Shown here one piece after another: positions 8,988 through 62,326 of a stretch of 64,000 bases of DNA (position 1 is its first letter; each line of letters begins with the position of its first letter). The translations under genes were made by a program, and so were the position numbers. Where the stretch lies: positions 25,203 to 89,202 of the forward strand of contig NZ_JBGCVY010000049.1 of assembly GCF_041088075.1 (NCBI RefSeq). The letters are read 5' to 3'. The notes under the pieces were generated by a model that was not told where the DNA came from, searched no databases, and saw only the letters and a list, made by a program, of their open reading frames with translations. Source of the DNA: Mucilaginibacter sp. Lineage in GTDB: Bacteria; Bacteroidota; Bacteroidia; Sphingobacteriales; Sphingobacteriaceae.

Positions 8988-9077
8988 TTGTAAATGTTGT
9001 TTTGACAATCCTGTTGCCTTGTACTTTTTAATTTGTATTGATTTTATTATTCTAACTTGCATTAAAATTTCAGTACT

Positions 9078-9222
9078 TGTTTAAATATATTAGAGGAAAA
9101 ATTGCCAATGCTTCTTTTACCCTATAAAAATTGGTGCCTGCATCCATTTAAATAAAACGAATGTTTACCAGTTTTTAGGTGATAAAAGAAGCATGGATAT
9201 TTTATCAAGTAAATTTTAAACA
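9078..9222. repeat. Family-1 composite palindromic element (complete)
   Basis: TGTTTAAAT at 9078-9086, L-arm 9108-9136, loop, R-arm 9168-9194, TTTTAAACA at 9214-9222. Confidence 0.9.
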
Positions 9223-9248
9223 GGAACTTACAATTGTAAACTTAACCC

Positions 9249-9806
9249 ATGAAAAAAACGATAATTCCGCTGCTGCTTTTCACCATATTTTGCCTGGTAA
9301 AAGAAGCATCGGCACAAGCCGACAACCTTAAAATTGTATTTATCCGCCACGCCGAAAAACCTGCAAAAGGAGACAATTTAACCTGCCAGGGATTGAACCG
9401 CGCTTTGCAATTGCCAGAATTGATCCGCCGCAAGTTTGGCGTTCCAAACTTTCTTTTTGCTCCGGGTTTAGGTTTGGGCGAGGCAACCAAACATGCCCGT
9501 ATGTTCCAAACCATTGCCCCAATTGCAATCAAATATAATTTGCCTATCAACACCAGCCATGCCGAAAAAGATTCGATGTTGATTGCGCAAGATTTAAAAA
9601 GCCGGACAGGGACAATTATTGTTGTTTGGGAACATAAAGCCATTGCACCGATCGTCCGGTCTTTGGGTGTAACAGCATCAAATTTGATTTGGCCTGATGA
9701 CGATTATGACAGCATTTGGATTGTTGCTTTTGTAAACGGAAAAGCAGTTTTTTCAAAAGACCGGGAAGGCTTGCACCCCTCTGCTGATTGTAACTTTCAC
9801 CAATAG
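9249..9806 (+). CDS. Secreted histidine phosphatase (phosphoglycerate mutase-like) family protein
   Basis: RHAEK catalytic motif and a downstream WEH. The signal-peptide region is encoded by a full Family-1 R-arm (9281-9309). Confidence 0.7.
   Translation: MKKTIIPLLLFTIFCLVKEASAQADNLKIVFIRHAEKPAKGDNLTCQGLNRALQLPELIRRKFGVPNFLFAPGLGLGEATKHARMFQTIAPIAIKYNLPINTSHAEKDSMLIAQDLKSRTGTIIVVWEHKAIAPIVRSLGVTASNLIWPDDDYDSIWIVAFVNGKAVFSKDREGLHPSADCNFHQ
9281..9309. repeat. Family-1 R-arm inside a CDS (signal-peptide region)
   Basis: CACCATATTTTGCCTGGTAAAAGAAGCAT, encoding FTIFCLVKEAS. Confidence 0.8.
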
Positions 9807-9863: not shown

Positions 9864-10008
9864 TGTTTAAATCTGTGTTATAAAAATACACAATGCTTCT
9901 TTTATGCCTGTAAATTTAGTGCTTTGCATTACCACAAAAAATCACAATAGACCAATGATTTTTAGGCGGTAAAAGAAGCATGGAAAATAAACTGAAATAA
10001 ATTAAACC
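9864..10008. repeat. Family-1 composite element
   Basis: TGTTTAAAT at 9864-9872, L-arm 9893-9921, R-arm 9951-9981, degenerate outer box ATTAAACC. Confidence 0.85.
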
Positions 10009-13329: not shown

Positions 13330-13495
13330 AAAAGATAGGTAATTAAATTAAACAAATTGGAAACCAAATATAATGAAGTATTACCGAAACCCGGGCAACA
13401 GATATAACAAAAGTACAAATGATACAAAAATATGTATGATAATACAAGTATTAGTTAGTTGATAAGCATACTTTGGCTGAACGAATTGCAAGGCT

Positions 13496-13666
13496 TGTTT
13501 AAATTTTTGTTCAACCTGTTTCCGATGCTTTTTTTATCGCTTAAAATTACGGTTAAGTTTTTCATGCTTCTTTTACCGGCATAAAATTAAACTGTAAATT
13601 GTTGCCCTAAAAGAAGCATGGCGGTCAATCATAAATTTGTTGAACATTCTGGTTCGAATTTAAACA
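13496..13666. repeat. Family-1 composite element with a duplicated L-arm
   Basis: Outer TGTTTAAAT, variant L core at 13525, exact L core at 13564, R core at 13608 and TTTAAACA at 13659-13666. Confidence 0.85.
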
Positions 13667-13703
13667 GCCTTTTAATATTGTATTTTCTTAATTTAAAACA
13701 AAT

Positions 13704-14741
13704 ATGGTAAATTTATCTAAAGCTAAAATCAGCAGTTCCCGTCATTTTTATTTCGTATTAGCTCACTTGTCATTGCTTTTGTTAAGCATTCATGTTAGCA
13801 GTTTTGCACAACAGGTTGCAAATAAACCGGCATCCCCACAGGTATTGCCCGGAAAAGGCGCCAAACAATTTGATTTTTTTTATGCCGGCGAAGCAAAAGC
13901 ACGCAACATGTATATTGTGCGCAATGGCAAAATCACATGGTCTTATATAGATACAGTTGGCAAAGGGGAAATTAGCGATGCCGTTTTAATGACGAACGGG
14001 AACATCCTTTTTGCCCACCAGTTTGGCGTTACTTTAATCAACCCCGATAAAAAAGTACTTTGGAACTACGATGCACCTGCTGGTTATGAAACGCACACGG
14101 CGCAACCTATTGGAAAAAATCATGTCGTTTTTATTCAAAATGGCAATCCCGCCAAACTGTTTGTTGTAAATATCAAAACCAATAAAACGGAAAAAGAATT
14201 TGTGTTGCCGACTAAAAACCCGACATCTACTCACGGACAATTTCGCCATGCGAGGCTAACTAAAGCAGGTACGATCCTGGTGGCCCACATGGATATGGGC
14301 AAGGTATGCGAATATGATATTAACGGCAAAGAGCTTTTATCTATTGATGTTCCGGGCGTTTGGTCGGCCGAACCGTTGGACAATGGAAACATCCTTGTGG
14401 CTGGCAATAAAAAACTTGTTCAGGAAATCAACCGGAAAGGGGAAACTGTGTGGGAATGTACAACCGCCGATATCCCTGAATACCAATTTTCGTCCCCGCA
14501 AATAGCCCTTCGCCTGGACAATGGCAATATCCTGGTCAATAATTGGTACAACCAGTGGGGGCCTACCACAAACCAAAGCAGCCTGCCGGTACAAGCCATA
14601 GAAATTACGCCCGGCAAAAAAGTGGTATGGGCCTTGCGAGAATGGACTGCCCCTTTAAACCTCGGGCCATCAACTACCATTCAATTACTGGGCAAGCGTG
14701 GCGTTATTTCAGAAAACGTACATTTTGGCGATATTAAATAA
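13704..14741 (+). CDS. Secreted beta-propeller-like protein, function unknown
   Basis: Signal peptide; recurring NGNIL(F/V) blade-like motifs. Confidence 0.45.
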   Translation: MVNLSKAKISSSRHFYFVLAHLSLLLLSIHVSSFAQQVANKPASPQVLPGKGAKQFDFFYAGEAKARNMYIVRNGKITWSYIDTVGKGEISDAVLMTNGNILFAHQFGVTLINPDKKVLWNYDAPAGYETHTAQPIGKNHVVFIQNGNPAKLFVVNIKTNKTEKEFVLPTKNPTSTHGQFRHARLTKAGTILVAHMDMGKVCEYDINGKELLSIDVPGVWSAEPLDNGNILVAGNKKLVQEINRKGETVWECTTADIPEYQFSSPQIALRLDNGNILVNNWYNQWGPTTNQSSLPVQAIEITPGKKVVWALREWTAPLNLGPSTTIQLLGKRGVISENVHFGDIK

Positions 14742-15035: not shown

Positions 15036-15093
15036 TAAAAAAAGCATGTAAACTTAATGCCTACATGCTTCTTTTACCTGTGTAAAATTCGGT
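15036..15093. repeat. Family-1 compact tail-to-tail hairpin (R' then L)
   Basis: TAAAAAAAGCAT at 15036-15047 and ATGCTTCTTTTACCTGTGTAAAATTCGG from 15065. Confidence 0.75.
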
Positions 15094-17079: not shown

Positions 17080-17101
17080 CACCCCTAACCCCTCTCAAGA
17101 G
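17080..17101. repeat. Left half of the 34-bp palindrome split by the MIC (includes the 12-bp duplicated target)
   Basis: CACCCCTAACCCCTCTCAAGAG; its partner GGGTTAGGGGTG lies at 18573-18584. Confidence 0.8.
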
Positions 17102-17152
17102 TAACTATATATGAGTTGGGATAAGATTTTTTTGATATTAAAAAAGCAGGTA

Positions 17153-17560
17153 TTAACGTATAATACCTGCTTCAATCATTGTGGATAGTTCAATCTCCGT
17201 CTTTTCTACACACTCATCAATATGACAATAAATTAGGTTGTCTTTTTTATTATCTACAAATATTTTTTTAGCAATACCATCCGTTAAACCAATTATGTTA
17301 TAATGGCAAGGATCGCCTTGCGAATCATCAAATTCTATTTGGCAATTTGGTAATAAGTCCCCACTGAATTTGAAATACATTGGAGGATTGGTGTGTTTTG
17401 GGAAATAGTTTCTAATATGGCTACACGTTCCACCTGACAATTTAATTGCACATTCTGAATCAATAACGGATATTCCGTTTTTACCCCTAAAGGCCATGCT
17501 GTTGAATCTTTTTCCTTTTGTTTCATAATGGTGTAAGGATAAAATTCTGATAAACTCCAT
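17153..17560 (-). CDS. Hypothetical protein (MIC cargo)
   Basis: 135-aa ORF that overlaps the upstream ORF by 226 nt in another frame, so its true start or a frameshift is unresolved. Confidence 0.4.
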   Translation of the reverse strand: MEFIRILSLHHYETKGKRFNSMAFRGKNGISVIDSECAIKLSGGTCSHIRNYFPKHTNPPMYFKFSGDLLPNCQIEFDDSQGDPCHYNIIGLTDGIAKKIFVDNKKDNLIYCHIDECVEKTEIELSTMIEAGIIR

Positions 17561-17982
17561 TGTGTTCTTTGATGTATTAATTCCTTTTTTAATCCCTCTA
17601 TGCTTAAAATATCTGATTGGTATAAATCATTATCTTCTTTGTCCATGATTGAAAAATGAAATTTGTTATCGTTTTTAACAAAAATCTCAACCGCTGAATT
17701 TAAAAAATATATTTTAATTAAAACTTCACCATCAAATCCAGGAAAAACGTCTATTGAGGTAAATAACATATTATAAAGGTAAAAACATAGATTTTTTGAC
17801 CTATCAATTGTTTCTATGTTAAATATTTCACCTTCTCCATAGTGCCAACCTTTCTTAAAGGTTAAGAATGTATCAAGCTTTTTAAAAATTGAATTCTTGC
17901 TTTCGCTTGGATTTAAAACAAATAATCCGTAGTTTATTTTATTTTGTTTCATCATCTCTAAGTTTAGCCATTGCCCGATCAA
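17335..17982 (-). CDS. Hypothetical protein (MIC cargo)
   Basis: 215-aa ORF; internal Met codons at 17955 and 17952 are more likely starts; contains a GWHYGEGE...FPGFDGEVLI motif. Confidence 0.5.
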   Translation of the reverse strand: MIGQWLNLEMMKQNKINYGLFVLNPSESKNSIFKKLDTFLTFKKGWHYGEGEIFNIETIDRSKNLCFYLYNMLFTSIDVFPGFDGEVLIKIYFLNSAVEIFVKNDNKFHFSIMDKEDNDLYQSDILSIEGLKKELIHQRTQWSLSEFYPYTIMKQKEKDSTAWPLGVKTEYPLLIQNVQLNCQVERVAILETISQNTPILQCISNSVGTYYQIAK

Positions 17983-18268
17983 TTACATCAGTAGTCATTA
18001 TTTCATTGTTTGAACTTGTTTCCAATCCTACAATTAATCCAGAAAGTTGCATAACAAGCGTTTTAGCAACACTCAAAGATAAGTTAAGTACAGCCTTAGA
18101 CTCATTATTTAGTTTTGCAAGTATTACTATATCGGCATTTGTCATTCCCGTTACAAATCCGTTAAAATAAAGCTTAGGTACATTAGGGTCTTTGTTCGCT
18201 TTGGGTAAATCGTTTACATCTGGCGTTGGTGGTGATATTTTTTGATATTTTAATGTTTTGTCAGACAT
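17939..18268 (-). CDS. Hypothetical protein, DUF3467-like (MIC cargo)
   Basis: 109 aa. The pattern YFNGF..(T/S)..D(I/V)V(I/L)......V.L.LS...AK.L...L matches my recollection of DUF3467; not verified by search. Confidence 0.45.
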   Translation of the reverse strand: MSDKTLKYQKISPPTPDVNDLPKANKDPNVPKLYFNGFVTGMTNADIVILAKLNNESKAVLNLSLSVAKTLVMQLSGLIVGLETSSNNEIMTTDVIDRAMAKLRDDETK

Positions 18269-18560
18269 AATTACTGTTTGATTGCTTACTATATAGGTTT
18301 ATTTTAAACAAAATACGAAAAGATTTTCTTTTTATTTGGTATAAATGTAATTACAATTACCACATTAAAGTGTATAAATTTTGTTAAGGTTTTTCTTTTT
18401 TTGTGTTTTCCTAAAAAATACTCTAATAGCCTCATCAAACTACCTTTGATAGCCATATCTCTTTTTTCATCTTTAACAGGAGGCGGTTTTTCTTTTTTCT
18501 CCTTTGCCGATACTGCATTAAAAAACGGTTCACACCCTTGTTCCAACTCGTATATAGTTA

Positions 18561-18584
18561 CCCTATCAAGAGGGGTTAGGGGTG
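18561..18584. repeat. Right target-duplication copy plus the right half of the split palindrome
   Basis: CCCTATCAAGAG followed by GGGTTAGGGGTG. Confidence 0.8.
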
Positions 18585-18607
18585 TGTCCTTTCAACAAAT
18601 ATTTAAT

Positions 18608-18657
18608 GCTATAAAAGCATCAGGTTCAAAAACCTTTCTCTATACAAAATTGGTGAC
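18608..18657. repeat. Degenerate Family-1 remnants (R-like GCTATAAAAGCAT, L-tail-like TATACAAAATTGGTG)
   Basis: Partial matches only. Confidence 0.4.
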
Positions 18658-19040
18658 TATTCCTTCTTCTCCAACTCCTTCTCCTTCACCTTAGCTTCCG
18701 TTTTTTCGATCTTGATGTCCAAGCGGATCAAGCCGTACAAACTCATGTAAATGTTGGCAATCCAAACCAGACTGAAACCGGCAATTAAATAGCCGCGCCA
18801 ACCATCAAACAACAATTTGTAACCGGTAATGATCAGCATAAAAATGGTGATGTAATGGCTGAAACAGTATTCGCAGGTAAACAAATAGAAAAACTTACGG
18901 GCGGCCAGTGTTTTTTGTTCGTGGCTGTTTTTCACGCAAAACTCCCGGATCTCTTTAAAAACTTCTTCGTGCGTAACCGTCCACGAAATGCAGGCAACCG
19001 GAATGGCCAGCACAAATAACATAACGAAAGGGTTGTACAT
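18657..19040 (-). CDS. Small integral membrane protein
   Basis: 127 aa with 3-4 predicted TM helices. A variant Family-1 arm ends 3 nt upstream of the ATG. Confidence 0.55.
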   Translation of the reverse strand: MYNPFVMLFVLAIPVACISWTVTHEEVFKEIREFCVKNSHEQKTLAARKFFYLFTCEYCFSHYITIFMLIITGYKLLFDGWRGYLIAGFSLVWIANIYMSLYGLIRLDIKIEKTEAKVKEKELEKKE

Positions 19041-20063: not shown

Positions 20064-20137
20064 ATGCTTCTTTTATACCTGCAAAACGCATAAGCGGCAA
20101 TGCTGTTTTATAATATTTATGCCGGTAAAAGAAGCAT
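20064..20137. repeat. Family-1 short composite (L-arm ... R-arm)
   Basis: Exact cores at 20064 and 20126. The L core lies 4 nt from the aldo/keto reductase start codon. Confidence 0.85.
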
Positions 20138-24017: not shown

Positions 24018-24041
24018 AAAATTTCTGTAAGATTTATATTT

Positions 24042-24194
24042 TGTTTAAATTTCATCCAACGTATTTTCAATGCTTCTTTTACCACCTAAAAATCACTGTC
24101 TTTTTGTGGTTTTTGTACCGGGAAAATATCAAGACACCAAATTTATAGGCATAAAAGAAGCATTATAAATTTTTAAGATAGCAATTTAAACAAG
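24042..24194. repeat. Family-1 composite element (complete)
   Basis: TTGTTTAAAT outer box, L-arm 24070-24098, R-arm 24135-24163, TTTAAACA at about 24186-24193. An extra TTTGTTTAAA at 24009-24018 contains the MATE stop codon. Confidence 0.9.
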
Positions 24195-24197
24195 CTC

Positions 24198-24587: not shown

Positions 24588-25490
24588 CTAAAAATACAAA
24601 TCAATCGCCGTTTTATAGGTATTGCAGTGCGCATCCACAATATCTTTAATGTCTGCCGAATAACCGCCGCCCATGCTTACCTGCACAGGTATTTTATTTG
24701 CCTGACATAATTGCAGTACAAATTCATCGCGCGCTTTGCAGCCTTCTTTCGATAAAGCCAATTTCCCTAATTTGTCCGTCGCCAGTACGTCAACGCCAGC
24801 CAGGTAAAAAATAAAATCAGGTTTAGTTTGATCAATCAATTTTGGCAATGCTTCTTTTAGCAGCATAAAATAAGCGTCGTCGCCTATTCCATCCAACAAC
24901 GGAATGTCCAAATCAGAACGTTCTTTTCGGTACGGGAAATTGTTGGCGCCGTGCATCGAAAAAGTAAAAACTTTGGGTTGATGTTGAAATATTTCGGCCG
25001 TTCCGTTTCCCTGGTGCACATCCAAATCAACAATTAAAATCGAGTCTGCCAATGCTTCTTTTAGCAGGTAATTTGCAGCGATGGCCTGGTCATTCAGCAT
25101 ACAAAAACCTTCGCCCCAATTGCTGCCGGCATGGTGCGTGCCGCCGGCAACGTTAAAAGCGATACCATTTTCGAAAGCGAAATGACAGCCATCAATCGTC
25201 CCCTGTGCAATACGGATTTCGCGTTCTACCAATTGCGCCGATAAGGGGAAACCAATCCTTCGTTGTTCTTTTGCTGGTAACGTTAAATCGCGCAGTTGCT
25301 GCCAGTAATATGCATCATGTGTCCACAATATTTTTTCTTCGGAAATTGGTTTTGGGGAGAAAATATTTTCTGCCGAAATCACGCCTTCATGCAGCAATTG
25401 CGCCGGGATCAGTTCGTATTTCAGCATCGGGAAACGATGGCCAGGCGGCAAAGGGTGCGCGTAAATTGGATCGAAAGCGATTTTCAACAT
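24588..25490 (-). CDS. Histone deacetylase / acetoin-utilisation family deacetylase
   Basis: Motifs GGTHHAG and DLDVHQGNG; 300 aa. Confidence 0.9.
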   Translation of the reverse strand: MLKIAFDPIYAHPLPPGHRFPMLKYELIPAQLLHEGVISAENIFSPKPISEEKILWTHDAYYWQQLRDLTLPAKEQRRIGFPLSAQLVEREIRIAQGTIDGCHFAFENGIAFNVAGGTHHAGSNWGEGFCMLNDQAIAANYLLKEALADSILIVDLDVHQGNGTAEIFQHQPKVFTFSMHGANNFPYRKERSDLDIPLLDGIGDDAYFMLLKEALPKLIDQTKPDFIFYLAGVDVLATDKLGKLALSKEGCKARDEFVLQLCQANKIPVQVSMGGGYSADIKDIVDAHCNTYKTAIDLYF

Positions 25491-30888: not shown

Positions 30889-32136
30889 ATGCAGACCATC
30901 CAACCACTTTTAGAGAACGCTGCCAAAGCAACCCGTTTCGTCCGAATTTTGGCCGATATACAAAAAAAGCTGTTGCTCGAAAAATTAGCGCAGCAAATCC
31001 AAGCTTCTACCCAGGAAATTATCCGGGAAAACCAAAAAGATTTAGACCGGATGGACGATACCGACCCGAAAAAAGACCGTTTGCTGTTGAACGAAAACCG
31101 CATTCATAATTTGGCCGAAAGCGTTTTTGCGGTTTCTTTGCTCACCGATCCCACCAACCGGATTTTGTCTGAAAAAACTTTGCCCAATGGCTTGTTCATC
31201 CAACAAAAAACCGTTCCGTTGGGCGTTATCGGCATCATTTATGAATCGCGCCCAAACGTAACCATTGATGTTGCCACATTATGCATCCGTTCGGGCAATG
31301 TTTGCGTGCTGCGCGGCGGCACCGATGCTTCTTTTACCAATGTTTTTTTAGTCTCGCTGATCCGAAAAGTGCTGGAAGGTTTCGGGCTGGATCAAAACAT
31401 CGTGCAGCTTTTGCCAACTGACCGCAAGTTCATTATGGAAATGCTCACGGCGGTGAAATACATTGATGTTATCATTCCGCGCGGTTCGCAACAACTGATC
31501 AATTATGTGCGCGAACATGCCAAAGTTCCGGTCATCGAAACCGGTGCCGGCGTTTGCCACACTTATGTTGAACGTACGGCTGACTTGGAAAAAGCTACCG
31601 CCATTGTGGTGAATGCAAAAGTTTCACGCCCGTCGGTCTGTAATGCGTTGGATACCATTTTGGTGGATGAAAACATTGCCGAAAAACTACTGCTAAAAAC
31701 AGCATCGCAATTCAAGGAGTTTCAGGTAGAGATTTTTGCGGACGAACGCGCCTTTGCCATCCTCAAAAACAACAATTACCCCTACTTGCAACAAGCAAAA
31801 CCGGAAGACTTTGGCCGGGAGTTTTTGGATTTTAAATGCTCTGTAAAAATAGTATCCGGTTACGAAGAAGCGCTGGGACACATTGTACAGTTTTCCTCCA
31901 AACATTCGGAAGCCATCGTTTCGCAAGACCAAAACCTGTGCGAAGCCTTTTTAAACGACGTGGATGCCGCTGCCGTTTACGCCAATGCTTCCACCCGTTT
32001 TACCGACGGCAGCGAATTTGGCCTGGGTGCCGAAATTGGTATCTCTACCCAAAAACTACATGCCCGCGGCCCGTTTGCCCTGGAAAAACTGGTTACGGAG
32101 AAATGGGTTGTGCGGGGCGATGGGCAGGTGCGGTAG
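30889..32136 (+). CDS. proA: Glutamate-5-semialdehyde dehydrogenase
   Basis: Motifs IYESRPNVT, VCNALDT and NASTRFTDG. The ORF is open from 30832, but that extension overlaps repeat sequence. Confidence 0.9.
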   Translation: MQTIQPLLENAAKATRFVRILADIQKKLLLEKLAQQIQASTQEIIRENQKDLDRMDDTDPKKDRLLLNENRIHNLAESVFAVSLLTDPTNRILSEKTLPNGLFIQQKTVPLGVIGIIYESRPNVTIDVATLCIRSGNVCVLRGGTDASFTNVFLVSLIRKVLEGFGLDQNIVQLLPTDRKFIMEMLTAVKYIDVIIPRGSQQLINYVREHAKVPVIETGAGVCHTYVERTADLEKATAIVVNAKVSRPSVCNALDTILVDENIAEKLLLKTASQFKEFQVEIFADERAFAILKNNNYPYLQQAKPEDFGREFLDFKCSVKIVSGYEEALGHIVQFSSKHSEAIVSQDQNLCEAFLNDVDAAAVYANASTRFTDGSEFGLGAEIGISTQKLHARGPFALEKLVTEKWVVRGDGQVR

Positions 32137-32158
32137 GAAGTGGGGTATATAACTTTTT

Positions 32159-32187
32159 ATGTTAGATTTTACTATAAAAACCATTAC
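32159..32187. repeat. Degenerate Family-1 L-arm at the left edge of the AT-rich islet
   Basis: ATGTTAGATTTTACTATAAAAACCATTAC; gapped similarity only. Confidence 0.35.
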
Positions 32188-32241
32188 ACTTATGCCATTG
32201 TAACATTATTAAATAAACTTTTGTATAACTAAAGTTGTTAA

Positions 32242-32249
32242 TATATTTG
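32242..32249 (+). promoter_or_regulatory. Candidate Bacteroidota -7 box (TATATTTG) with TTTG at 32220-32223
   Basis: Matches TAnnTTTG, with an upstream TTTG after an 18-nt spacer. Confidence 0.3.
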
Positions 32250-32283
32250 TTTATCTCATTAACCAGGATGTTAAAGGAGAAAC

Positions 32284-32320
32284 GAAGCCGTTAAGTTTTC
32301 TTAGCGGCTTCAGCTTTTTT
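32284..32320 (+). terminator. Intrinsic terminator
   Basis: 12-bp stem GAAGCCGTTAAG / CTTAGCGGCTTC (one mismatch), loop TTTT, then AGCTTTTTT. Confidence 0.7.
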
Positions 32321-32335
32321 GTAAGCTTCGTATTC

Positions 32336-32614
32336 TTGCAGCAACCTTCTTTTTTTGTTAGGAAAGGTTGTTACTATGTATGCTATTCAAGAACGATGAG
32401 TACGAATGGTTTCAGACCAGTTGATGGTTTTAAACAACATTTGAATAATTGGATTGCACGATTTAAGTCGGTAAAAACAGTATCGCCCCAACAAAAAGTA
32501 ATTATTCCCGGCGAAGCTGAATTGGATCGAAAAGTAAATGGTATTCTTTTGGTGGATCCGGTGGTTAAAGATTTAAATGAATTGACCGAGAAGTTGTGTG
32601 TGGAAGGGTTATAA
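32336..32614 (+). pseudogene. Remnant of a malate/L-lactate dehydrogenase (Ldh_2) family gene, C-terminal part only
   Basis: The 92-aa ORF resembles only the C-terminal tail of Ldh_2 oxidoreductases (...IPGEAELDRK...GILLVD...); the N-terminal ~250 aa are missing. Recollection-based. Confidence 0.4.
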
Positions 32615-32785
32615 ATTATAAGTTACTTTTTATTGATTAGAAATTTATAGTTCTAAGATCGGAATTGCAAATCACGACAAGTATAAGGGGTTATAGTTAC
32701 AAATCCCATATAATAGATTAATCTTTAACAATTAAAGTATATTTGAAAGACGATGTATTAAAGTTTTAAAATTATTCTCATAATC

Positions 32786-33076
32786 ATGAATTATTCAAAT
32801 ACACAATTAAAAGTAGCAGTAAAATTTCTGGCTGCAGCTCAAGGTGACATTAAAGAAAGACTTTTAATAGCTTTTAACGGAACTTTACACAAACTTAATA
32901 ATGATGATTTTCCTGAAGACCAGAAAGAGGAATGGAAATTAATCTATAATGCTTTGACTACCAGGAATGGTAAAACAGAGAGTGTAGAAGAAATATTAAG
33001 GGAATTAGATTCAGAAAAATGCGTAGAAATTGCAAAAATGATTTGCATATTGTGTTTTAAAGATTGTGTAAAATAA
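32786..33076 (+). CDS. Hypothetical protein (AT-rich islet)
   Basis: 96-aa helical ORF. Confidence 0.4.
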   Translation: MNYSNTQLKVAVKFLAAAQGDIKERLLIAFNGTLHKLNNDDFPEDQKEEWKLIYNALTTRNGKTESVEEILRELDSEKCVEIAKMICILCFKDCVK

Positions 33077-33125
33077 ATTATGTTATGAATTAAAAACGTT
33101 ATTATGCTGGTCAGGATAAGTAATT

Positions 33126-33248
33126 CTAATTATCAAATACAAATGCGTGACTTGAGGTAAAGAAAAGTATAGCCAACAAAATAAGTACAACTACAGCCAT
33201 AATTGTTGAATGTAGCTTTAGTGGTTTTAAAGAACTCCAATTAACCAT
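33126..33248 (-). CDS. Possible 40-aa single-TM peptide
   Basis: Hand-translated as MVNWSSLKPLKLHSTIMAVVVLILLAILFFTSSHAFVFDN. Its ATG lies 1 nt after the stop of the upstream zinc-ribbon ORF. Confidence 0.25.
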   Translation of the reverse strand: MVNWSSLKPLKLHSTIMAVVVLILLAILFFTSSHAFVFDN

Positions 33249-33249
33249 A

Positions 33250-33498
33250 TTAAAATTTATAATGAATTATAAGTACGATTAATATTATGGCAACTATCCA
33301 TAAAACAACAATGCTTTGTATAAGTCTTCCTTTGTTAATAGAAAAAGCACAATCTTCACAGACACTTCTCAGTCCCGTATTTGTTCTCGTGCTGTAACTT
33401 GTTCCACGTTTACCATAATAGGTGCCACTTGATTGTCCTGTTATTACGCTTCTACGATAATTAGCACCATATCGTCCACAATTATAACAAGAAGCCAT
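33250..33498 (-). CDS. Zinc-ribbon protein with C-terminal TM anchor
   Basis: CxxC (CYNC) ... CxxC (CEDC) followed by a hydrophobic tail (IVVLWIVAIILIVLII). Confidence 0.45.
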   Translation of the reverse strand: MASCYNCGRYGANYRRSVITGQSSGTYYGKRGTSYSTRTNTGLRSVCEDCAFSINKGRLIQSIVVLWIVAIILIVLIIHYKF

Positions 33499-33775
33499 AG
33501 TAAAGTATGTAGTTAGTTTAAAAAAAGTGTAGCGTAGCTAAATTAAAAAATATTAATTAAAGAACGGTTAAAAATGTTATCTGCAAAAACTAATGTAAAA
33601 TGATTTTAAATCTATTTAAGTTAAAAAATAACACCCTACTGGTCGAATTTCATAATCTTGTTTTTTGAATCATGATCTACGAATCAGTCTATTAATTCAT
33701 AAGATTTTCATCCTGATCTATTTCCAACTAACTATTCTTTAAAATACAAAAGATGTAACCTCTCCGATTATACCT

Positions 33776-33804
33776 TTTATATTTTACACCGATAAAAGAA
33801 ACAT
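33776..33804. repeat. Family-1 R-arm (1 mismatch) at the right edge of the AT-rich islet
   Basis: ...TTTTACACCGATAAAAGAAACAT, 3 nt from the lepB stop. Confidence 0.6.
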
Positions 33805-34952: not shown

Positions 34953-35705
34953 TTAAGCGTTAAAATTAAACAGATCGGCGGCTGTAAAGAAACCTTTACG
35001 GTCTTTAACCCACTCGGCGGCCAGCACCGCGCCCAAAGCAAAACCTGAGCGATTGTGCGCCGTATGTTTAAACTCGATGCTGTCCACTTCCGAATCGTAA
35101 ACCACGGTATGCGTGCCTGGAACATTTTCGATCCGGTGCGATTCGATCAGCAATTGCTGCGGCGTAATGCTAAGCGGCGAAGCATCATTCAAAGTGCCCG
35201 AAACCACATTGACCCATGCTTCTTTTACCGGCATATTTTCGATGATGCCTTCGGCGATGGTGATGGCCGTTCCGCTTGGCGCATCTAATTTTTGGGTATG
35301 GTGGATTTCTTCGACCTGAACTTCGTAATCCGGGAAACGATTCATCACTTTGGCCAGCATTTTATTGATATGGAAAAAAATATTCACACCAACACTAAAA
35401 TTGGAAGCGTAAATCAGGGAAGCATTGCGCTGCAAACACTCAATTTTAACTTCCTGCAATTTTTCGTACCAGCCCGTTGCGCCAACCACAACCGGAATTT
35501 CGGCTTCAAAACAAAGCGCAATATTGTTTAAAACGGTATGCGGCGTACTAAATTCGATCGCAACGTCTGCTTTTTGCAGGTTTTCTAAAGTTAGTTCCTG
35601 CAAATTATCATGATCAATTTTCAGAACAATTTCGTGTTTGCGCTCCAGGGCAACCTGCTCGATCATCTTGCCCATTTTTCCGTATCCGAGTAAAGCTATT
35701 TTCAT
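34953..35705 (-). CDS. dapB: 4-hydroxy-tetrahydrodipicolinate reductase
   Basis: Motifs GYGKMG and [15 protein letters not shown]. Confidence 0.9.
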
Positions 35706-36447: not shown

Positions 36448-37365
36448 TTACCAGTCGAGCATTTCCAGTATGCGGTTCAAATCGTCTTCAGACAAAAACG
36501 GGATTTCGATGCTGCCTTTTCCGTTTTGCCCCACTTTTAGTTTTACCGGAGAATTGAACTTGGAAGCCAGATCAGATTGTATCTTTTGCGCCTGAAAAGA
36601 AGGTTTAGGGCTTGGTTTGCCAATGCTGTTTTTAGCAGGTGTTTTTTGGAGTTCGCGCACCAGTTCTTCCACTTTACGCACCGATAAACCTTTTTCAATA
36701 ATCTGGTGATGGATAAAAAGCAGTTTTGCCGCATCTTCCACGTTGACCAAAGCGCGGGCGTGGCCCATTGTAATTTGCCCGTCGCGAATGGAAGATTGTA
36801 CCACCGGCGGCAATTTTAACAAGCGCAAATAATTGGTAACGGTTGATCGGTTTTTGCTAACGCGCTCGCCCAGTTCGTCCTGCTTTAAATTACATTCGTC
36901 AATCATCCGCTGAAAACTCAACGCCATTTCTATCGCGTTCAGGTTTTCCCGCTGGATATTTTCGATCAAAGCCATTTCCAACATCTGCTGATCGTTGGCG
37001 GTGCGCACGTAAGCCGGAATTTCTGTTAAACCAGCTATTTTAGAGGCACGCAAACGCCGTTCGCCGGAAATTAATTGGTAAGAACGCACGCCGGTTTTAC
37101 GAACGGTAACCGGCTGGATCAAACCCTGGACAGAAATTGAATCGGCCAGTTCCTGCAAAGCCTGCTCGTCAAATTCTGTTCTTGGCTGAAAAGGGTTTAC
37201 TTCGATCTCACTGATTTTAACGGCGTTAACCGATTTTAAACCTTCCGTTTCCGGCGCGGCAACAATCGGGGTTGCTTTTTTTGCAGCCGTTCCGTTTACA
37301 TAATCCGAATCGTTTAGCAAAGCGCCTAAACCTCTTCCCAACGCATTTCTCTTATCTGCACTCAT
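36448..37365 (-). CDS. parB: Chromosome partitioning protein ParB
   Basis: Motifs [20 protein letters not shown] and an HTH. Confidence 0.9.
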
Positions 37366-38215: not shown

Positions 38216-38253
38216 TAAAAGAAGTATTGTGTTCATGAAAAATGCTTCTTTTA
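38216..38253. repeat. Family-1 compact tail-to-tail hairpin upstream of parA
   Basis: TAAAAGAAGTAT at 38216-38227, a 14-nt loop, then ATGCTTCTTTTA at 38242-38253. Confidence 0.8.
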
Positions 38254-38857: not shown

Positions 38858-38922
38858 CCCTCAGCTAAAGCCTCACCCAGAGAGAGGAATTAAGAAAACC
38901 TTAACTTTATCCTGTCAGAGCC

Positions 38923-39069
38923 TGTTTAAAATTTTCCAATTTATTTTCCATGCTTCTTTTACCCTATAAAAATTAGTAAATATTTGGTTTTTAGTTTATA
39001 AAAATTGATGCCGGCACCAATTTTTATAGGGTAAAAGAAGCATTGGCATTTTTCATATAAATTTAAACA
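38923..39069. repeat. Family-1 composite element (complete)
   Basis: TGTTTAAAA outer box, L-arm 38950-38978, R-arm 39015-39043, TTTAAACA at 39062-39069. Confidence 0.9.
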
Positions 39070-39105
39070 AGCTCTTAATATTCATTCCCAAACCAATACT
39101 TGCCC

Positions 39106-39627
39106 ATGCTCACCATTATTGCCGGCACCAACCGGCCCAACAGCAGTACTTTAAAATTAGCCAATTATTACCAAAAAAAGCTGGTTGAAAAAGGTGTTGA
39201 AGCAGCAATCCTATCTTTAGAAAACTTGCCGGACAACTTGCTGAAAACCGATCTGTACGGAAAACGCAGCGAAGCCTTTAAACCTATACAAGCGCAAATT
39301 GACGCTTCCGATAAATTCATTTTTATTATTCCGGAATACAACGGCAGCTTTCCGGGCGCGTTAAAAGTTATGATGGATGCCTGCGATTTCCCTGAAAGTT
39401 TTTTTGATAAAAAAGCGGCTTTGGTTGGTATTTCTTCGGGCAAATACGGCAATATCCGCGGCGTGGACCATTTTACGGGAGTTTGCAATTACCTGAATAT
39501 GCATGTATTTTCGCTTAAACTGCATATTCCTTTTATTCGAAAAGAAATGGATGCAGAGAACAATCTGACGCAGGAAGACACGATTAAATTTACCGAAGAA
39601 CAAATGGACAGGTTTTTGAAGTTTTAG
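39106..39627 (+). CDS. NAD(P)H-dependent FMN reductase family oxidoreductase
   Basis: Motifs GTNRPNSST and IIPEYNGSFPG. Confidence 0.8.
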   Translation: MLTIIAGTNRPNSSTLKLANYYQKKLVEKGVEAAILSLENLPDNLLKTDLYGKRSEAFKPIQAQIDASDKFIFIIPEYNGSFPGALKVMMDACDFPESFFDKKAALVGISSGKYGNIRGVDHFTGVCNYLNMHVFSLKLHIPFIRKEMDAENNLTQEDTIKFTEEQMDRFLKF

Positions 39628-39890
39628 GTTGATTTGTTTTTGATGCTTCTTTTATCGCATAAAAATCATTGTCTGGTATTTTCCAATAATGTTTTGGCTA
39701 AAGCCATTCGCCGATCTGCTTTAACCACGGCCTCAAGCCATGGCAATTGAAGTTTCTGAAGTTTTAGGTTGAATTGTTTTTGATGCTTCTTTTATCGCAT
39801 AAAAACATTGGCTGTATTTGCAAAAATGTTTTGGCTAAAGCCATTTGCCGGTCTGCTTTAACCACGGCCTAAAGGCCATGGCAATTGTAG
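39612..39890. repeat. Tandem direct duplication (2 x about 140 bp); each copy carries a Family-1 L-arm and a Family-4 half
   Basis: Copy 1 is 39612-39751 and copy 2 is 39752-39890. Copy 1 starts inside the last 16 nt of CDS 39106-39627. Confidence 0.8.
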
Positions 39891-39978
39891 CAAAATTTTG
39901 GGGAAGAAATTCGGTTATTTTCATTGCCACGGCCTTTAGGCCGTGGTTAATGTCGCTTAGCATTGGCTTTAGCCAAAA
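39829..39978. repeat. Family-4 long palindrome (TTGGCTAAAGCCA / AACCACGGCCTAAAGGCC modules)
   Basis: 39858-39885 pairs with 39923-39950, and 39829-39844 pairs with 39962-39978. Confidence 0.75.
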
Positions 39979-43937: not shown

Positions 43938-44102
43938 TCATTAGGCAATAGTAATGAAACAGTTGTTACGATCTGGTGATTATCCAGCTTCTAACAGTAT
44001 ATTCCTTTGTAGGTTTAACCGCTATTTATGCCTGTTAACAGTTTTCTTGTAATTTTGATCCATTAACCCACACGGTAGTAATGTGTTTGCATTTATAAAG
44101 CC

Positions 44103-44272
44103 TGTTTAAGTTTCTACAAGAAAATATGTTAATGCTTCTTTTAGCCTATAAAAATTGGTGTTTGCATCTGCGTAAACAAACACAAAACCAGGTACACACC
44201 AATTTTTACGTGGTAAAAGAAGCATTATGATCAATCCTGAACATGTTGAAGGATATGGTATAAATTTAAACA
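44103..44272. repeat. Family-1 composite element (complete)
   Basis: TGTTTAAG outer box, L-arm 44132-44160, R-arm 44197-44225, TTTAAACA at 44265-44272. Confidence 0.9.
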
Positions 44273-44301
44273 GGCGTCAGATCCTACTTCAAAACCAACC
44301 C

Positions 44302-44548: not shown

Positions 44549-44580
44549 ATGCTGTTTTTATCGGTATAAAATTGGTATTG
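44549..44580. repeat. Family-1 variant arm abutting a start codon
   Basis: ATGCTGTTTTTATCGGTATAAAATTGGTATTG, 4 nt from the minus-strand ATG at 44544. Confidence 0.7.
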
Positions 44581-46115: not shown

Positions 46116-46218
46116 GACCTTTTATACCATCAATTGGTGTAGCTATCTAAAAAGAAAAATGGCCGAAAAAGTTTTGATACTTATCGGCCATGCTTCTTTT
46201 ATCGGTATAAATTACATT
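46116..46218. repeat. Two tandem Family-1 L-arms
   Basis: A degenerate arm ending CAATTGGTG at 46139, and an exact core at 46190-46201. Confidence 0.7.
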
Positions 46219-46493
46219 TTGGCCGGCTTGGTTTTGTTGGCTTTGTAGCGCATATCGGGTGTGCCGTCTTTTTTCATCGGTCCGGCTGCCATTGGTTTTG
46301 CGGACTGGTAGGCTTTGTAGCGTTTGTCGGGCGTGCCGTCTTTTTTCATTGGTGCGGCAGTCTGTTTGGTTGTTGCCGACCTGGAACTCATTTTTGCAGT
46401 GGTTTGGCTGGAAGTTGCTTTTGCCGGAACTTGTGCGAAACCAGCAGTTGCCATAAAAGCAAGTAACATCAAGGCGCTGAATAATTTTTTCAT
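46212..46493 (-). CDS. Small secreted protein with internal tandem repeat
   Basis: Signal peptide, then PMKKDGTPDKRYKA and GPMKKDGTPDMRYKA. Confidence 0.5.
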   Translation of the reverse strand: MKKLFSALMLLAFMATAGFAQVPAKATSSQTTAKMSSRSATTKQTAAPMKKDGTPDKRYKAYQSAKPMAAGPMKKDGTPDMRYKANKTKPAKM

Positions 46494-47253: not shown

Positions 47254-47388
47254 ATGCTTCTTCCCTCCTCTTTCTGGTGATGCTTCTTTTACCGCACAAA
47301 AATCAGTGTTGACAGCCTCAGCCCAACCTTTTTTAAAATAGAGAAAGCCTGCTACACTTTCACTAATTTTATGCGGTAAAAGAAGCAT
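47254..47388. repeat. Family-1 composite (partial L, full L-arm, R-arm)
   Basis: Partial ATGCTTCTTCC at 47254, L-arm 47280-47308 and R-arm 47361-47388. Confidence 0.85.
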
Positions 47389-47486: not shown

Positions 47487-47515
47487 CACTGATTTTTATA
47501 CGATAAAAGAAGCAT
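47487..47515. repeat. Family-1 solo R-arm
   Basis: CACTGATTTTTATACGATAAAAGAAGCAT. Confidence 0.85.
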
Positions 47516-50450: not shown

Positions 50451-50479
50451 CCTTAATTTTTACCCGATAAAAGAAGCAT
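50451..50479. repeat. Family-1 solo R-arm
   Basis: CCTTAATTTTTACCCGATAAAAGAAGCAT. Confidence 0.8.
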
Positions 50480-52985: not shown

Positions 52986-52989
52986 GGGC

Positions 52990-53141
52990 CTTTTTAAATT
53001 TATACGAGAAAGAATAATGATGCTTCTTTTACCCTATAAAAATTGGTGTACGCATCAATCTAAATAAACCAGAATTGAATGTTTACGGTTTTTTAGGCGA
53101 TAAAAGAAGCATCGGAAAATATATTAAACAAAATTTAAACA
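52990..53141. repeat. Family-1 composite element (complete)
   Basis: L-arm 53020-53048, R-arm 53085-53112 and TTTAAACA at 53134-53141. The loop is homologous to the loop of the 9078-9222 copy. Confidence 0.9.
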
Positions 53142-53216
53142 GGGTTTAAATCAAGCAGCTTATCTTTATCAAAAACAAGAAATTTAGCTTTTAATTTACG
53201 CTTCCGAAATAAAAAA

Positions 53217-54212: not shown

Positions 54213-54273
54213 ATTTAAGACTGTTTGTTGATGAAATTAAGGGCATGTTCAAATTTATACAAGAAAAAATGCA

Positions 54274-54474
54274 ATGCTTCTTTTATCGTATAAAAATTGG
54301 TGCCCGTATCAATTCTTATAAACCAAAACCAAAGGTTCACCAATTTTTAGGTGGTAAAAGAAGCATCGCAAATAAGTTCAACAGAATTTAAACAAGCTCC
54401 AAATGTTCACCAATTTTTATAGGGTAAAAGAAGCATCGCAAATAACTTCAACAAAATTTAAACAAGCTTTTCTA
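54274..54474. repeat. Family-1 composite element with a tandemly duplicated right half
   Basis: L-arm 54274-54302; R-arms 54338-54366 and 54408-54436; 70-bp units at 54335-54404 and 54405-54474. Confidence 0.9.
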
Positions 54475-56805: not shown

Positions 56806-56844
56806 GCAATAGGTAAGATAAAAGTTGCGAAACCGATATTGATT

Positions 56845-57008
56845 TGTTTAAACTTTTTTTCCAGCCCTCTTTTTTTGGGCTGATGCTTCTTTTACCCTAT
56901 AAAAATTGGTGCCTGTATCGGCCTAAACAAATTAAAAACCGGGCAATGCCAATTTTTTAGGCGATAAAAGAAGCATGGTGCAAAGCATAAAAGAATAAGT
57001 TTAAACAA
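56845..57008. repeat. Family-1 composite element (complete)
   Basis: TGTTTAAAC at 56845-56853, L-arm 56884-56912, R-arm 56949-56977, GTTTAAACA at 57000-57008. Confidence 0.9.
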
Positions 57009-57040
57009 CTTCATTGCTAAATTGCAATATCAATAAAAAC

Positions 57041-59853: not shown

Positions 59854-60030
59854 TGTTTAAAAATGTCATATCCAAGAGCGTGTTTAAAAATCATCCTGTT
59901 GATTTTCTATACTTCTTTTACCGGCTTAAAATCACGAAAGCTTTATCCTTTCTATGATTTCATCTCAGGCAAAAACAAAAATCACCAGCATAAAAGAAGC
60001 AATATCAATTTTGAAATACAAATCTAAACA
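59854..60030. repeat. Family-1 composite element (diverged cores, duplicated outer box)
   Basis: TGTTTAAAAATG at 59854 and TGTTTAAAAATC at 59881; ATACTTCTTTTA at 59909; TAAAAGAAGCAA at 59991; outer box TCTAAACA. Confidence 0.75.
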
Positions 60031-60132
60031 GGCGCTAATGTATATATGCTTAATTAAAATTTTGAAAGATGTATTTCAGTGCAAAAAACCTAATTTGGCC
60101 CGAAGATACTTAATAGAGTAGTACCCTAAAAA

Positions 60133-62239: not shown

Positions 62240-62326
62240 ATGCTTCTTTTACCACCTAAAAATTAGTGTGATCGAAAGATATTTTCCAAATTGAACACAC
62301 CAAAATTATACCGATAAAAGAAGCAT
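62240..62326. repeat. Family-1 short composite (no outer boxes seen)
   Basis: L-arm 62240-62268 and R-arm 62298-62326. Confidence 0.85.

Follow-up and report, generated by a model that had tools for sequence, protein, structure and literature searches.

A 64,000-nucleotide stretch of DNA from Mucilaginibacter sp. (Bacteroidota; Sphingobacteriaceae), positions 25,203 to 89,202 of contig NZ_JBGCVY010000049.1 and referred to below as the window, carries a composite palindrome at 9078-9222, in which two inverted arms separated by a loop are enclosed by short outer boxes. This locus raises the question of whether such palindromes are mobile units and, if so, whether their mobility explains the many similar arms scattered over the window. 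We are highly confident that this element and nine siblings in the window are miniature inverted-repeat transposable elements (MITEs), that is, short non-coding DNA transposons. Their arms are copies of a 12-nt word, ATGCTTCTTTTA, and it is very probable that this word arises and is maintained in place, independently of transposition. An explanation in two layers, in which a MITE is combined with a clade-wide word that serves as a DNA uptake tag, is in our judgement evenly poised between right and wrong.

The composite palindromes have the features of short DNA transposons

The architecture proposed for 9078-9222 in the original prediction can be read directly in the sequence: an outer box TGTTTAAAT, a 20-nt spacer, a left arm ATGCTTCTTTTACCCTATAAAAATTGGTG, a loop of ~30 nt, a right arm CAGTTTTTAGGTGATAAAAGAAGCAT, a spacer and a closing box TTTAAACA. 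An inverted-repeat finder placed 40-nt arms at 9096-9135 and 9167-9206. The ten complete copies named beforehand were all recovered by inverted-repeat search and alignment, with their ends shifted by a few bases. When 13 composite copies were aligned, homology ran across the entire unit and extended the outer box to the inverted repeat (A)GAGCCTGTTTAAAT ... ATTTAAACAGGCTC(T), giving a terminal inverted repeat of 13-14 bp, GAGCCTGTTTAAA(T), at both element ends. The element at 9078-9222 was thereby upheld and its ends were moved to 9073-9227, a span with the full terminal repeat G(A)GCCTGTTTAAAT. This terminal repeat has 31 matches in the window at <=3 mismatches, as compared with 6.4 in shuffles. 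The loops at 9137-9167 and 53049-53084 are homologous, as had been noticed, and ~30 further copies in relatives share homologous loops. The stems, put at ~29 bp beforehand, range from 23 to 40 nt at 70-96% complementarity. Within the stem, the variable 5-nt block of the arm stays unpaired, as an internal loop that derives from the master copy.

The window was compared with loci of relatives and outgroups, which are denoted by L-numbers (e.g. L001, L203). The identity of ParB to that of the window was 96% in an uncultured metagenome-assembled genome (MAG; L001, ~90% identical in DNA), 85-87% in L002-L005, and <=74% in named Mucilaginibacter species. In addition, the histone-deacetylase (HDAC)-family protein was 90% identical to that of the cultured Mucilaginibacter arboris (locus L202; sequenced genome GCA_009754915.1), indicating that this species belongs to the window's clade. 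In the 38 clade copies that have terminal repeats at both ends, lengths of 154-163 bp form one cluster and a variant of 174-182 bp, which has an insertion of ~20 nt, another; units of these lengths are too short to encode a transposase. The 3-nt flanks were identical in 17 of the 38 copies, and 52 of the 76 flanks read TNA, 46 of the 76 being TAA or TTA. The target duplication is accordingly 3 bp, TAA/TTA, and not TA, TTAA or TTTAAA as had been proposed. Specifically, a copy at L004 6302-6450 has perfect terminal repeats between TAA/TAA flanks, and terminal repeats that are perfect at both ends were also found in L093 and L146.

A precise empty site was found in the closest of these relatives. 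The fifth copy of the window (38918-39074) is missing from L001, in which position 8476 adjoins 8477. The sequence at the empty site is TATCCTATTAATATT, that at the filled site of the window TATCCTG-TCA-[GAGCC...GCTC]-TTA-ATATT, indicating that one TTA became TCA...TTA. The same copy is also missing in L002-L004, and the fourth copy is absent at the HDAC-MatE junction in M. arboris (L202) and L203. On the other side of the scale of age, copies 1 and 2 are conserved in L201 (91% protein identity), indicating that the family is old with occasional recent movement. The terminal repeats, the target duplication, the precise empty site and the subfamily with homologous loops together support the earlier suggestion of copy-and-paste of whole units. 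In Mucilaginibacter sp. L029 (TAA/TAA) and in Daejeonella L074 (TGA/TGA), these ends and this duplication enclose an unrelated interior, which is a different palindrome in L029. A plasmid collection contained no match to the MITE.

The ten copies in the window are as follows.

9073-9227: MITE copy 1; terminal repeats 9073-9086 and 9214-9227; arms 9108-9137 (+) and 9165-9194 (-); flanks TCA / TTA.
9859 to ~10012: MITE copy 2; left terminal repeat AAGCCTGTTTAAAT, right end degenerate; arms at 9893 (+) and 9981 (-); present in L201 too.
13491-13671: MITE copy 3; 181 bp; arms at 13564 (+) and 13619 (-); an extra arm with one mismatch at 13525.
~24037 to 24197: MITE copy 4; flanks TAA/TAA.
38918-39074: MITE copy 5; 157 bp; arms 96% complementary; flanks TCA / TTA; the youngest-looking copy.
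44098-44277: MITE copy 6; 180-bp length variant; flanks not a duplication.
52986-53146: MITE copy 7; 161 bp; TAA/TAA duplication; loop homologous to that of copy 1.
54241-54399: MITE copy 8; followed by an extra right half to 54469, with an arm at 54436 and a terminal repeat.
~56842 to 57010: MITE copy 9; both terminal repeats degenerate; left spacer with an inserted small GC hairpin (CAGCCC...GGGCTG).
59876-60035: MITE copy 10; 160 bp; one mismatch in each arm; flanks CAA / TAA.

Copy 1 is kept at the orthologous site in L201, where both arms have changed from G-C to A-T. In this orthologue of 9060-9242 (L201 9813-9995), the left ATGC became ATAC and the right GCAT became GTAT, and the hairpin is kept; a constraint on the hairpin or conversion within the palindrome are possible causes.

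A 12-nt word far outnumbers the MITE

The 12-mer ATGCTTCTTTTA has 65 matches at <=1 mismatch in the window, where 0.77 are expected. The exact copies among them number 49 (27 on the plus and 22 on the minus strand), as compared with ~0.02 per 64 kb by chance, as estimated from base composition and the match expectation. The spectrum over 0, 1 and 2 mismatches is 49/16/27, and that in shuffles 0.2/0.4/11. Exact copies exceed those with one mismatch by 3:1 while the spacers and terminal repeats of the MITE have diverged, indicating that something keeps the 12-mer exact. The arm consensus derived from the 49 exact copies is (C)(R)ATGCTTCTTTTA-YC-nnn-(T)AAAAAT-T(G)GTG; that is, the 12-nt core ATGCTTCTTTTA is followed by an asymmetric 18-nt extension with C at +13, an A/T tract from +18 to +23 and often GGTG. 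The word has a second variant, ATGCTGTTTTTA, which replaces ATGCTTCTTTTA at orthologous sites in L002, L003 and L203, and both variants occur in every genome sampled.

A metagenome scan for ATGCTNNTTTTAYCNNNTAAAA returned 120 loci, in which NN was TC 374 times, GT 63 times, TT 20 times and few others. Note that the metagenome clade loci (811 kb) were chosen for carrying the word, so that their density is inflated, and the unbiased set consists of 194 kb picked through proteins. The unbiased set holds 151 copies (116 of ATGCTTCTTTTA and 35 of ATGCTGTTTTTA), or 0.78/kb, and the outgroups, 75 other Mucilaginibacter, Pedobacter and Daejeonella loci that amount to 1.39 Mb, hold 4 copies, or 0.003/kb. 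The word is confined to a Mucilaginibacter arboris-like clade. No match to the arm pattern was found in 2.9 million viral contigs, the plasmid collection likewise lacks the word, and a literature search for both 12-mers returned unrelated subjects only.

In the 811 kb chosen for the word, we counted 514 exact arms, of which 105 adjoin a MITE terminal repeat, 280 are otherwise intergenic, and 92 lie well inside open reading frames (ORFs; these are crude longest-ORF calls). The share of arms that belong to MITEs is thus only ~20% in these word-selected loci. The extension, with C at +13 and an A- or T-run, is kept in all three classes. Only 188 of the 514 arms are paired and 63% are unpaired; the modal distance of convergent pairs, 92-93 nt, is that of the MITE. 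The idea of a MITE made of such arms therefore stands as far as the mobility of the units is concerned, but mobility does not explain the arms, ~80% of which lie outside MITEs and which arise in place by substitution.

Inside genes the word has originated by substitution

Well inside ORFs lie 37 of the 151 copies of the unbiased set (~1/4). Inside ORFs the word falls into a few reading frames, which encode (V/L/I)K(E/T)A 43 times, (N/D)A(S/V)F 38 times, K(R/N)SI 19 times and MLLL 17 times, and both directions are used (57 sense and 62 antisense copies inside genes). At seven of eight coding sites that were compared with outgroups, the word was derived through an amino-acid change at a poorly conserved position; at the eighth, in lepB, outgroups and clade alike encode NASF, and only codon choice in the clade spells the word. 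The genic arms show no change in length against the outgroups. Genic sites in the window include the following.

9298-9309 (-): core with extension in the signal-peptide region of a histidine-phosphatase gene (VKEAS); derived against outgroups.
24848-24859 and 25052-25063 (+): two cores in the HDAC-family gene; both encode LLKEAL and both are derived against outgroups.
35216-35227 (+): arm core in dapB; the coding strand reads GTA AAA GAA GCA T (VKEA); conserved in four relatives.
36623-36634 (+): variant core ATGCTGTTTTTA inside parB.

At the dapB site, outgroups have D(S/T/A)KK(E/G)WV (e.g. DSKKE) and the clade has PVKEAWV. In the histidine-phosphatase signal peptide, LSASYAQ, ISEVKAQ and others in outgroups correspond to (V/I)KEASAQ in the clade. 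The first HDAC-family site reads YLL(N/H/K)(N/K/H)(K/N/G)LA in outgroups and YLLKEALA in the clade (YLLKTALA in L203), and the second IL(E/K)(R/Q)TLP in outgroups and LLKEALP in the clade; at a third, several clade members have KNSI, from which both outgroups and window differ. At the parB site, the outgroups have PVKKEGK, and clade members have PAKNSIA with the variant word, SAKRSIA with the main word (L005), or TDKKSIS as an intermediate (L004). Transposition cannot produce this pattern of origin inside genes, gain and loss by substitution, and switching of the variant at orthologous sites.

Arms between genes

The earlier count of 25 intergenic regions with at least one arm was reproduced, out of 39 intergenic regions longer than 30 nt rather than ~45. 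Contrary to the earlier claim, the GCAT end does not always face the flanking genes: the opposite arrangement is seen in two head-to-head pairs (15036-15076 and 38216-38253) and in numerous solo arms. Arms outside the MITEs include the following.

15036-15076: two arms head to head, flanked by a tRNA gene and by htpG (3' end).
20064-20137: convergent arm pair without terminal repeats; its left arm stops 4 nt short of a start codon, that of a minus-strand aldo/keto reductase gene.
38216-38253: two arms head to head, upstream of parA; their ATGC ends point at each other; same site in L001-L004.
44549-44560 (+): arm of the variant word, upstream of a small conserved minus-strand ORF and 4 nt from its start codon; identical in L001-L004.
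46190-46219 (+): solo arm that immediately follows a terminator-like hairpin; L001 and L004 have it too.
47280-47388: convergent arm pair without terminal repeats; a further solo arm at 47504-47515.
62240-62326: convergent arm pair without terminal repeats, between two glycosyltransferase-cluster genes.

The site of the solo arm at 46190 is alignable in L002 and L003 and has no arm there, which points to gain or loss through substitution. Of the pair upstream of parA, both arms are of the variant word in L002 and one arm is in L003. An arm downstream of lepB likewise stays in place across species, with the variant word in L002. Many elements lie 20-120 nt after stop codons and others lie between divergent genes. 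Solo arms were sense in 45 and antisense in 60 cases after stop codons, and sense in 22 and antisense in 42 cases before start codons.

Several readings of the arms as regulatory or chromosomal signals were considered and rejected or disfavoured. A promoter was rejected: Bacteroidetes promoters have the consensus -33 TTTG / -7 TAnnTTTG; both spacing and conservation of the arm and the outer box misfit it, and the distances from arm to start codon are scattered except for a few arms that overlap start codons. A start-codon context was rejected as a general rule since the base after GCAT is not constant. A signal like Chi or KOPS (FtsK-orienting polar sequence) is disfavoured, as there is no overall strand skew in the window or in genes and 12-30 nt is too long.

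The upstream region of parA in outgroups L006-L031 (~85-110 nt before the start) has a conserved TGTTTAAATccgTATCTTTAgcaCCggATAAAAACTTT followed by a hairpin, roughly at the position of the clade arm. This sequence resembles the outer box and the arm of the MITE, and it may be a seed sequence or an unrelated conserved leader.

DNA uptake as a candidate process maintaining the word

Biased uptake of word-carrying DNA together with homologous recombination is the only characterised process that gives the signature described above, and the word is for this reason considered as an uptake tag. That DNA uptake is indeed what maintains the word is a tentative view, to which we assign somewhat less than an even chance. 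The word would then mark the DNA of a naturally transformable lineage of Sphingobacteriaceae, and biased uptake with recombination would act as a molecular drive keeping it. In the MITE layer, a DDE transposase supplied in trans, probably of the IS5 / PIF-Harbinger kind, would recognise the terminal repeat GAGCCTGTTTAAA(T) and insert the unit at TAA/TTA, duplicating those 3 bp. The arms of the MITE are two inverted copies of the clade word and not a product of the MITE itself; on the uptake reading, its ancestor would have contained an inverted tag pair and then been amplified, and ~1/5 of today's tags would be its copies. More tentative still is the full proposal that ATGCTTCTTTTA/ATGCTGTTTTTA is a putative first uptake tag outside Proteobacteria, which the transformation machinery of Bacteroidota would recognise, and that a MITE with two copies of it spreads by transposition as well as by preferential uptake. 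The IS1031 group, with GAG ends and 3-bp repeats (ISfinder), is a possible lead for assignment to an IS5 subgroup. Canonical Harbinger elements have 3-bp duplications and are related to the IS5 family (PMC12730594).

Several observations weigh against this explanation. On the side of the word, a literature search gave no report of natural competence in Sphingobacteriaceae. Both variants occur within single genomes (11 and 10 copies in 21 kb of L203), which is unusual for DNA uptake sequence (DUS) dialects, and the intergenic bias of ~75% is stronger than that in Neisseria (65%). Furthermore, neighbouring solo arms have the same orientation in 143 cases and the opposite one in 105, a weak excess. 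On the side of the MITE, an all-against-all comparison of clade loci with ~115 kb of orthologous alignment gave a single clean empty site (window/L001), and two other MITEs, copies 1 and 2, are fixed at ~90% identity. In addition, a search of 2.5 Mb of retrieved loci for terminal-repeat pairs 400-3500 bp apart, and for GAGCCTG...CAGGCTC pairs with TNA duplications, brought up no autonomous insertion sequence (IS) having these terminal repeats.

The candidates returned by that search were rejected: those of ~1.1 kb in L092, L096 and L151 are two MITEs around an ordinary NAD(P)-binding gene, and in L009 and L048 the matches arose by chance, within lepB and within a radical-SAM-like gene. At L092 9729-10843, the gene between the two MITE copies encodes a 217-aa NAD(P)-binding protein, and the same TAGATTYTGTTACAACTTTCTTAGATTYTGTTATTT repeat stands behind each MITE copy. 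The arrangement has the look of a local gene-and-MITE duplication rather than of a composite transposon.

The window has no arms in two low-GC stretches, 17.1-19.0 kb (GC 0.36) and 32.1-33.8 kb (GC 0.33), or in the window-specific segment 41.4-44.1 kb, which together make up a small sample. Should the same hold genome-wide, it would agree with the word being depleted in acquired DNA. The intervals 17100-19000 and 32100-33800 contain only short ORFs or ORFs without a Pfam match, and they look like accessory or foreign DNA.

Other explanations of the word

The arms may instead be binding sites of an abundant sequence-specific protein, such as a nucleoid-associated or condensin-loading protein, an insulator or a domesticated transposase, that are kept by selection and of which the MITE spreads ready-made pairs. 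The bipartite shape of the arm, with a 12-nt core, five variable nucleotides, an A-tract and GGTG, is like a footprint with a bend; the concerted switch of the variant at orthologous sites fits co-evolution with a trans-acting factor; and the intergenic enrichment is strong. Many pairs also have a fixed spacing of 92-93 nt, but this is simply the spacing within the MITE, and no regularity of spacing and no rule of orientation relative to genes was found otherwise. A density of 0.78/kb amounts to thousands of sites per few-megabase genome, and it is hard to see how each could be selected individually, at a cost in amino acids, without a drive. We regard this explanation as unlikely. The target of a DNA-binding protein, which the original prediction had also suggested, may take another form too: an uptake receptor, or some other protein that acts on double-stranded DNA, may be what recognises the word.

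A further alternative is a highly iterated word, as in the cyanobacterial HIP1, driven by a bias linked to repair, methylation or recombination and not by uptake. The signature of hyper-abundance, in-gene origin and lineage variants is the same, and the lack of known competence in Sphingobacteriaceae is in line with it. Nevertheless, the word has 12 nt, is not palindromic and carries an asymmetric 18-nt extension, and no repair bias with a specificity of 12 nt is known; we consider a process of this kind rather improbable.

Doublets of inverted arms with a preferred spacing and long hairpins recall repetitive extragenic palindromic (REP) sequences, in which case the arms would be REPs, the convergent pairs REPINs (REP doublets forming hairpins), both spread through single-stranded hairpins by a REP-associated tyrosine transposase (RAYT; Y1 HUH), and the solo arms decayed copies. 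Lineage specificity, the concerted change of both L201 arms with the hairpin kept, and the existence of RAYT subclasses 2.4 and 2.6 in Bacteroidetes (PMC6006769) are in line with this. However, stable folding is a property of the whole elements (-32 to -42 kcal/mol, with z = -4.7 to -6.4 vs shuffles); five single arms gave -0.8 to -1.8 kcal/mol (z = -1.5 to +0.3), so that an arm has no hairpin of its own, being non-palindromic with z ~0. The arm ends in (C)(R)ATGC, without a GTAG or CGTC tag, and ~25% of copies are intragenic and arose there by substitution. Furthermore, terminal repeats with a 3-bp duplication point to DDE-type and not HUH-type chemistry, and a six-frame motif search, a weak one as the genomes are partial, found no HUH/Y1 ORF in ~0.9 Mb of clade loci. 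Spread as REPs is thus improbable.

The strong folding of the composites (z = -4.7 to -6.4) also bears on a role in RNA, in which the hairpins would be selected as bidirectional terminators, stabilisers of mRNA or processing sites, as the original prediction had contemplated. Consistent with such a role are the many elements lying 20-120 nt past stop codons, the change of paired bases from G-C to A-T in L201, and tight palindromic pairs after genes (e.g. L203 13969-13998). On the other hand, the 63% of arms that are unpaired cannot form a hairpin, elements occur in divergent promoter regions as well as in 3' regions, the 5-nt block is an unpaired internal loop from the master copy, and intragenic arms would be harmful as terminators. 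No U-tract follows the stems, no strand rule holds for solo arms and no Rfam family matches, so that the suggested terminator or RNA-processing role was not borne out, and we rate an RNA-level element as very improbable. An intrinsic bidirectional terminator in particular was rejected since the AT-rich stems are followed by GGAAAATA-type sequence without a U-tract and since elements also lie between divergent genes.

The palindrome at L203 13962-14005, downstream of a DUF2383 gene, is tight and perfect, CCTGCAG-ATGCTGTTTTTA-TACCGG-TAAAAACAGCAT-CTGCAGG, and consists of two variant words (13969-13998) with a 6-nt loop; it resembles the inverted DUS pairs that act as terminators in Neisseria.

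Finally, the purely selfish explanation, in which every arm is a MITE relic and nothing maintains the word, can draw on the ~1/5 of arms that are demonstrably inside MITEs and on pairs without terminal repeats that could be decayed copies, but it is hardly credible given the 3:1 excess of exact over one-mismatch copies despite diverged spacers and terminal repeats, the unchanged length of genic arms against outgroups, and arms that come and go by substitution at alignable orthologous sites.

Genomic setting and neighbouring repeats

The genes of the window, which include parA, parB, dapB, lepB, htpG, a two-component system, a TonB receptor and polysaccharide genes, indicate ordinary chromosomal DNA. 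A Pfam scan of 20 window proteins likewise gave ordinary chromosomal genes and no transposase or competence gene among them, and an Rfam search of the whole window at gathering thresholds returned two tRNAs only, with no family matching the palindromes.

The MAG records of L002, L003 and protein P0137 are titled 'Janthinobacterium lividum', a betaproteobacterium. Their ParB, HDAC-family identity (86-90%), gene order and GC content of 39% are those of Sphingobacteriaceae, and these bins are probably mislabelled.

Two other repeats stand beside arms. Within 39620-39950, a tandem duplication of ~140 bp contains solo arms at 39643 and 39783 that share a near-identical 25-nt upstream flank, and a 28-nt inverted repeat, TTAACCACGGCCTAAAGGCCATGGCAAT, comes after it (39858-39885 and 39923-39950). 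An unrelated inverted-repeat family (TCATCCCCCTAACCCCCTTCAAAGGGGG...) at 50326-50356/50420-50450 has 31-nt arms that are 90% complementary and 63 nt apart; it lies just upstream of an ABC permease gene and adjoins a solo arm at 50468-50479.

The outgroup Mucilaginibacter loci L006-L080 have abundant 10-mers of their own, namely GTCATTGCGA/CTCGCAATGA (in at least 7 loci), ATCTGCACAT (L029 and L041) and AATTAGTGAAT (L068). Lineage-specific repeat words may thus be general in Sphingobacteriaceae.

Comparison with known systems

The origin and generality of uptake sequences is an old question, and the word described here shows the density, the in-place origin in genes and the variants that bear on it. 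It occurs in a soil lineage of Bacteroidota with a cultured and sequenced member, M. arboris (GCA_009754915.1), so that the hypothesis is directly testable. If true, it would open a way into the transformation apparatus of Bacteroidota and into Riemerella's preference for self-DNA; if the word is not an uptake tag, it would join HIP1 as a second clear case in which an unknown process drives a word into genes. There is nothing unusual in the MITE itself, which can serve as a strain marker and illustrates a transposon with a host-wide signal at its centre. An uptake signal is unreported in Bacteroidota, and the window MITE is a new member of a familiar element type.

The DUS of Neisseriaceae and the uptake signal sequence (USS) of Pasteurellaceae consist of a core with an AT-rich extension and occur as inverted pairs. 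The word resembles them in its invariant core (12 nt here, 10-12 in DUS and 9 in USS) with a weaker AT-rich extension, as in the extended USS of ~29 nt, in its frequency of ~1 copy per kb in both orientations, with many copies in ORFs in few tolerated frames and at poorly conserved residues, and in its intergenic inverted pairs; its two variants may correspond to lineage-specific dialects. It differs in its phylum, Bacteroidota, in its stronger intergenic bias and in having two variants per genome. To our knowledge, copies located in a MITE, as 1/5 of the word copies are here, have not been described for DUS or USS. In these systems, 34.5-65% of copies lie in ORFs at ~1 copy per kb, with favoured frames and a preference for poorly conserved residues (PMC2817400), and related species differ in their DUS dialects (PMC3630211). 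No families other than Neisseriaceae and Pasteurellaceae are known to have uptake sequences (bioRxiv 10.1101/2025.10.24.684340). Within Bacteroidota, whose transformation apparatus is described as unique (PMC8459023), Riemerella is naturally transformable with an unusual machinery, and transformation of Riemerella columbina prefers its own DNA, with no defined tag known (PMC7965970).

As for the MITE, the nearest likeness is to Tourist-like MITEs (IS5 / PIF-Harbinger), with which it shares a non-coding length of ~160 bp, terminal repeats of 13-14 bp, a 3-bp TWA duplication, insertion polymorphism and many copies in AT-rich intergenic DNA; what sets it apart is an interior in which a host-wide word makes up a long near-perfect palindrome. 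The Correia elements (Correia repeat enclosed elements, CREE) of Neisseria are MITEs of ~100-160 bp with terminal repeats, a TA duplication and long hairpins, and they are numerous between the genes of a genome that has an uptake sequence as well. The window MITE is like them in being short, with terminal repeats, a T/A-rich duplication and a long hairpin, but it duplicates TWA and carries two copies of the word; as far as we know, Correia elements do not contain DUS.

Similarly, REPs, REPINs and bacterial interspersed mosaic elements (BIMEs) are clade-specific intergenic repeats that often occur as hairpin-forming inverted doublets. In REP/RAYT systems, a GTAG or CGTC tag stands at one end (PMC3733652), and RAYT subclasses 2.4 and 2.6 of Bacteroidetes are flanked by atypical structures (PMC6006769). 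The arms of the window, in contrast, are non-palindromic, untagged and to 1/4 intragenic, and their composites have terminal repeats and a duplication. HIP1 of cyanobacteria is an 8-nt palindrome tied to a methyltransferase site that is found in and between genes, arises by substitution, has species variants and is of unknown cause. The likeness lies in a hyper-abundant short word with variants in and between genes, and the difference in that the word described here is a 12-nt asymmetric one with a directional extension rather than an 8-nt palindrome.

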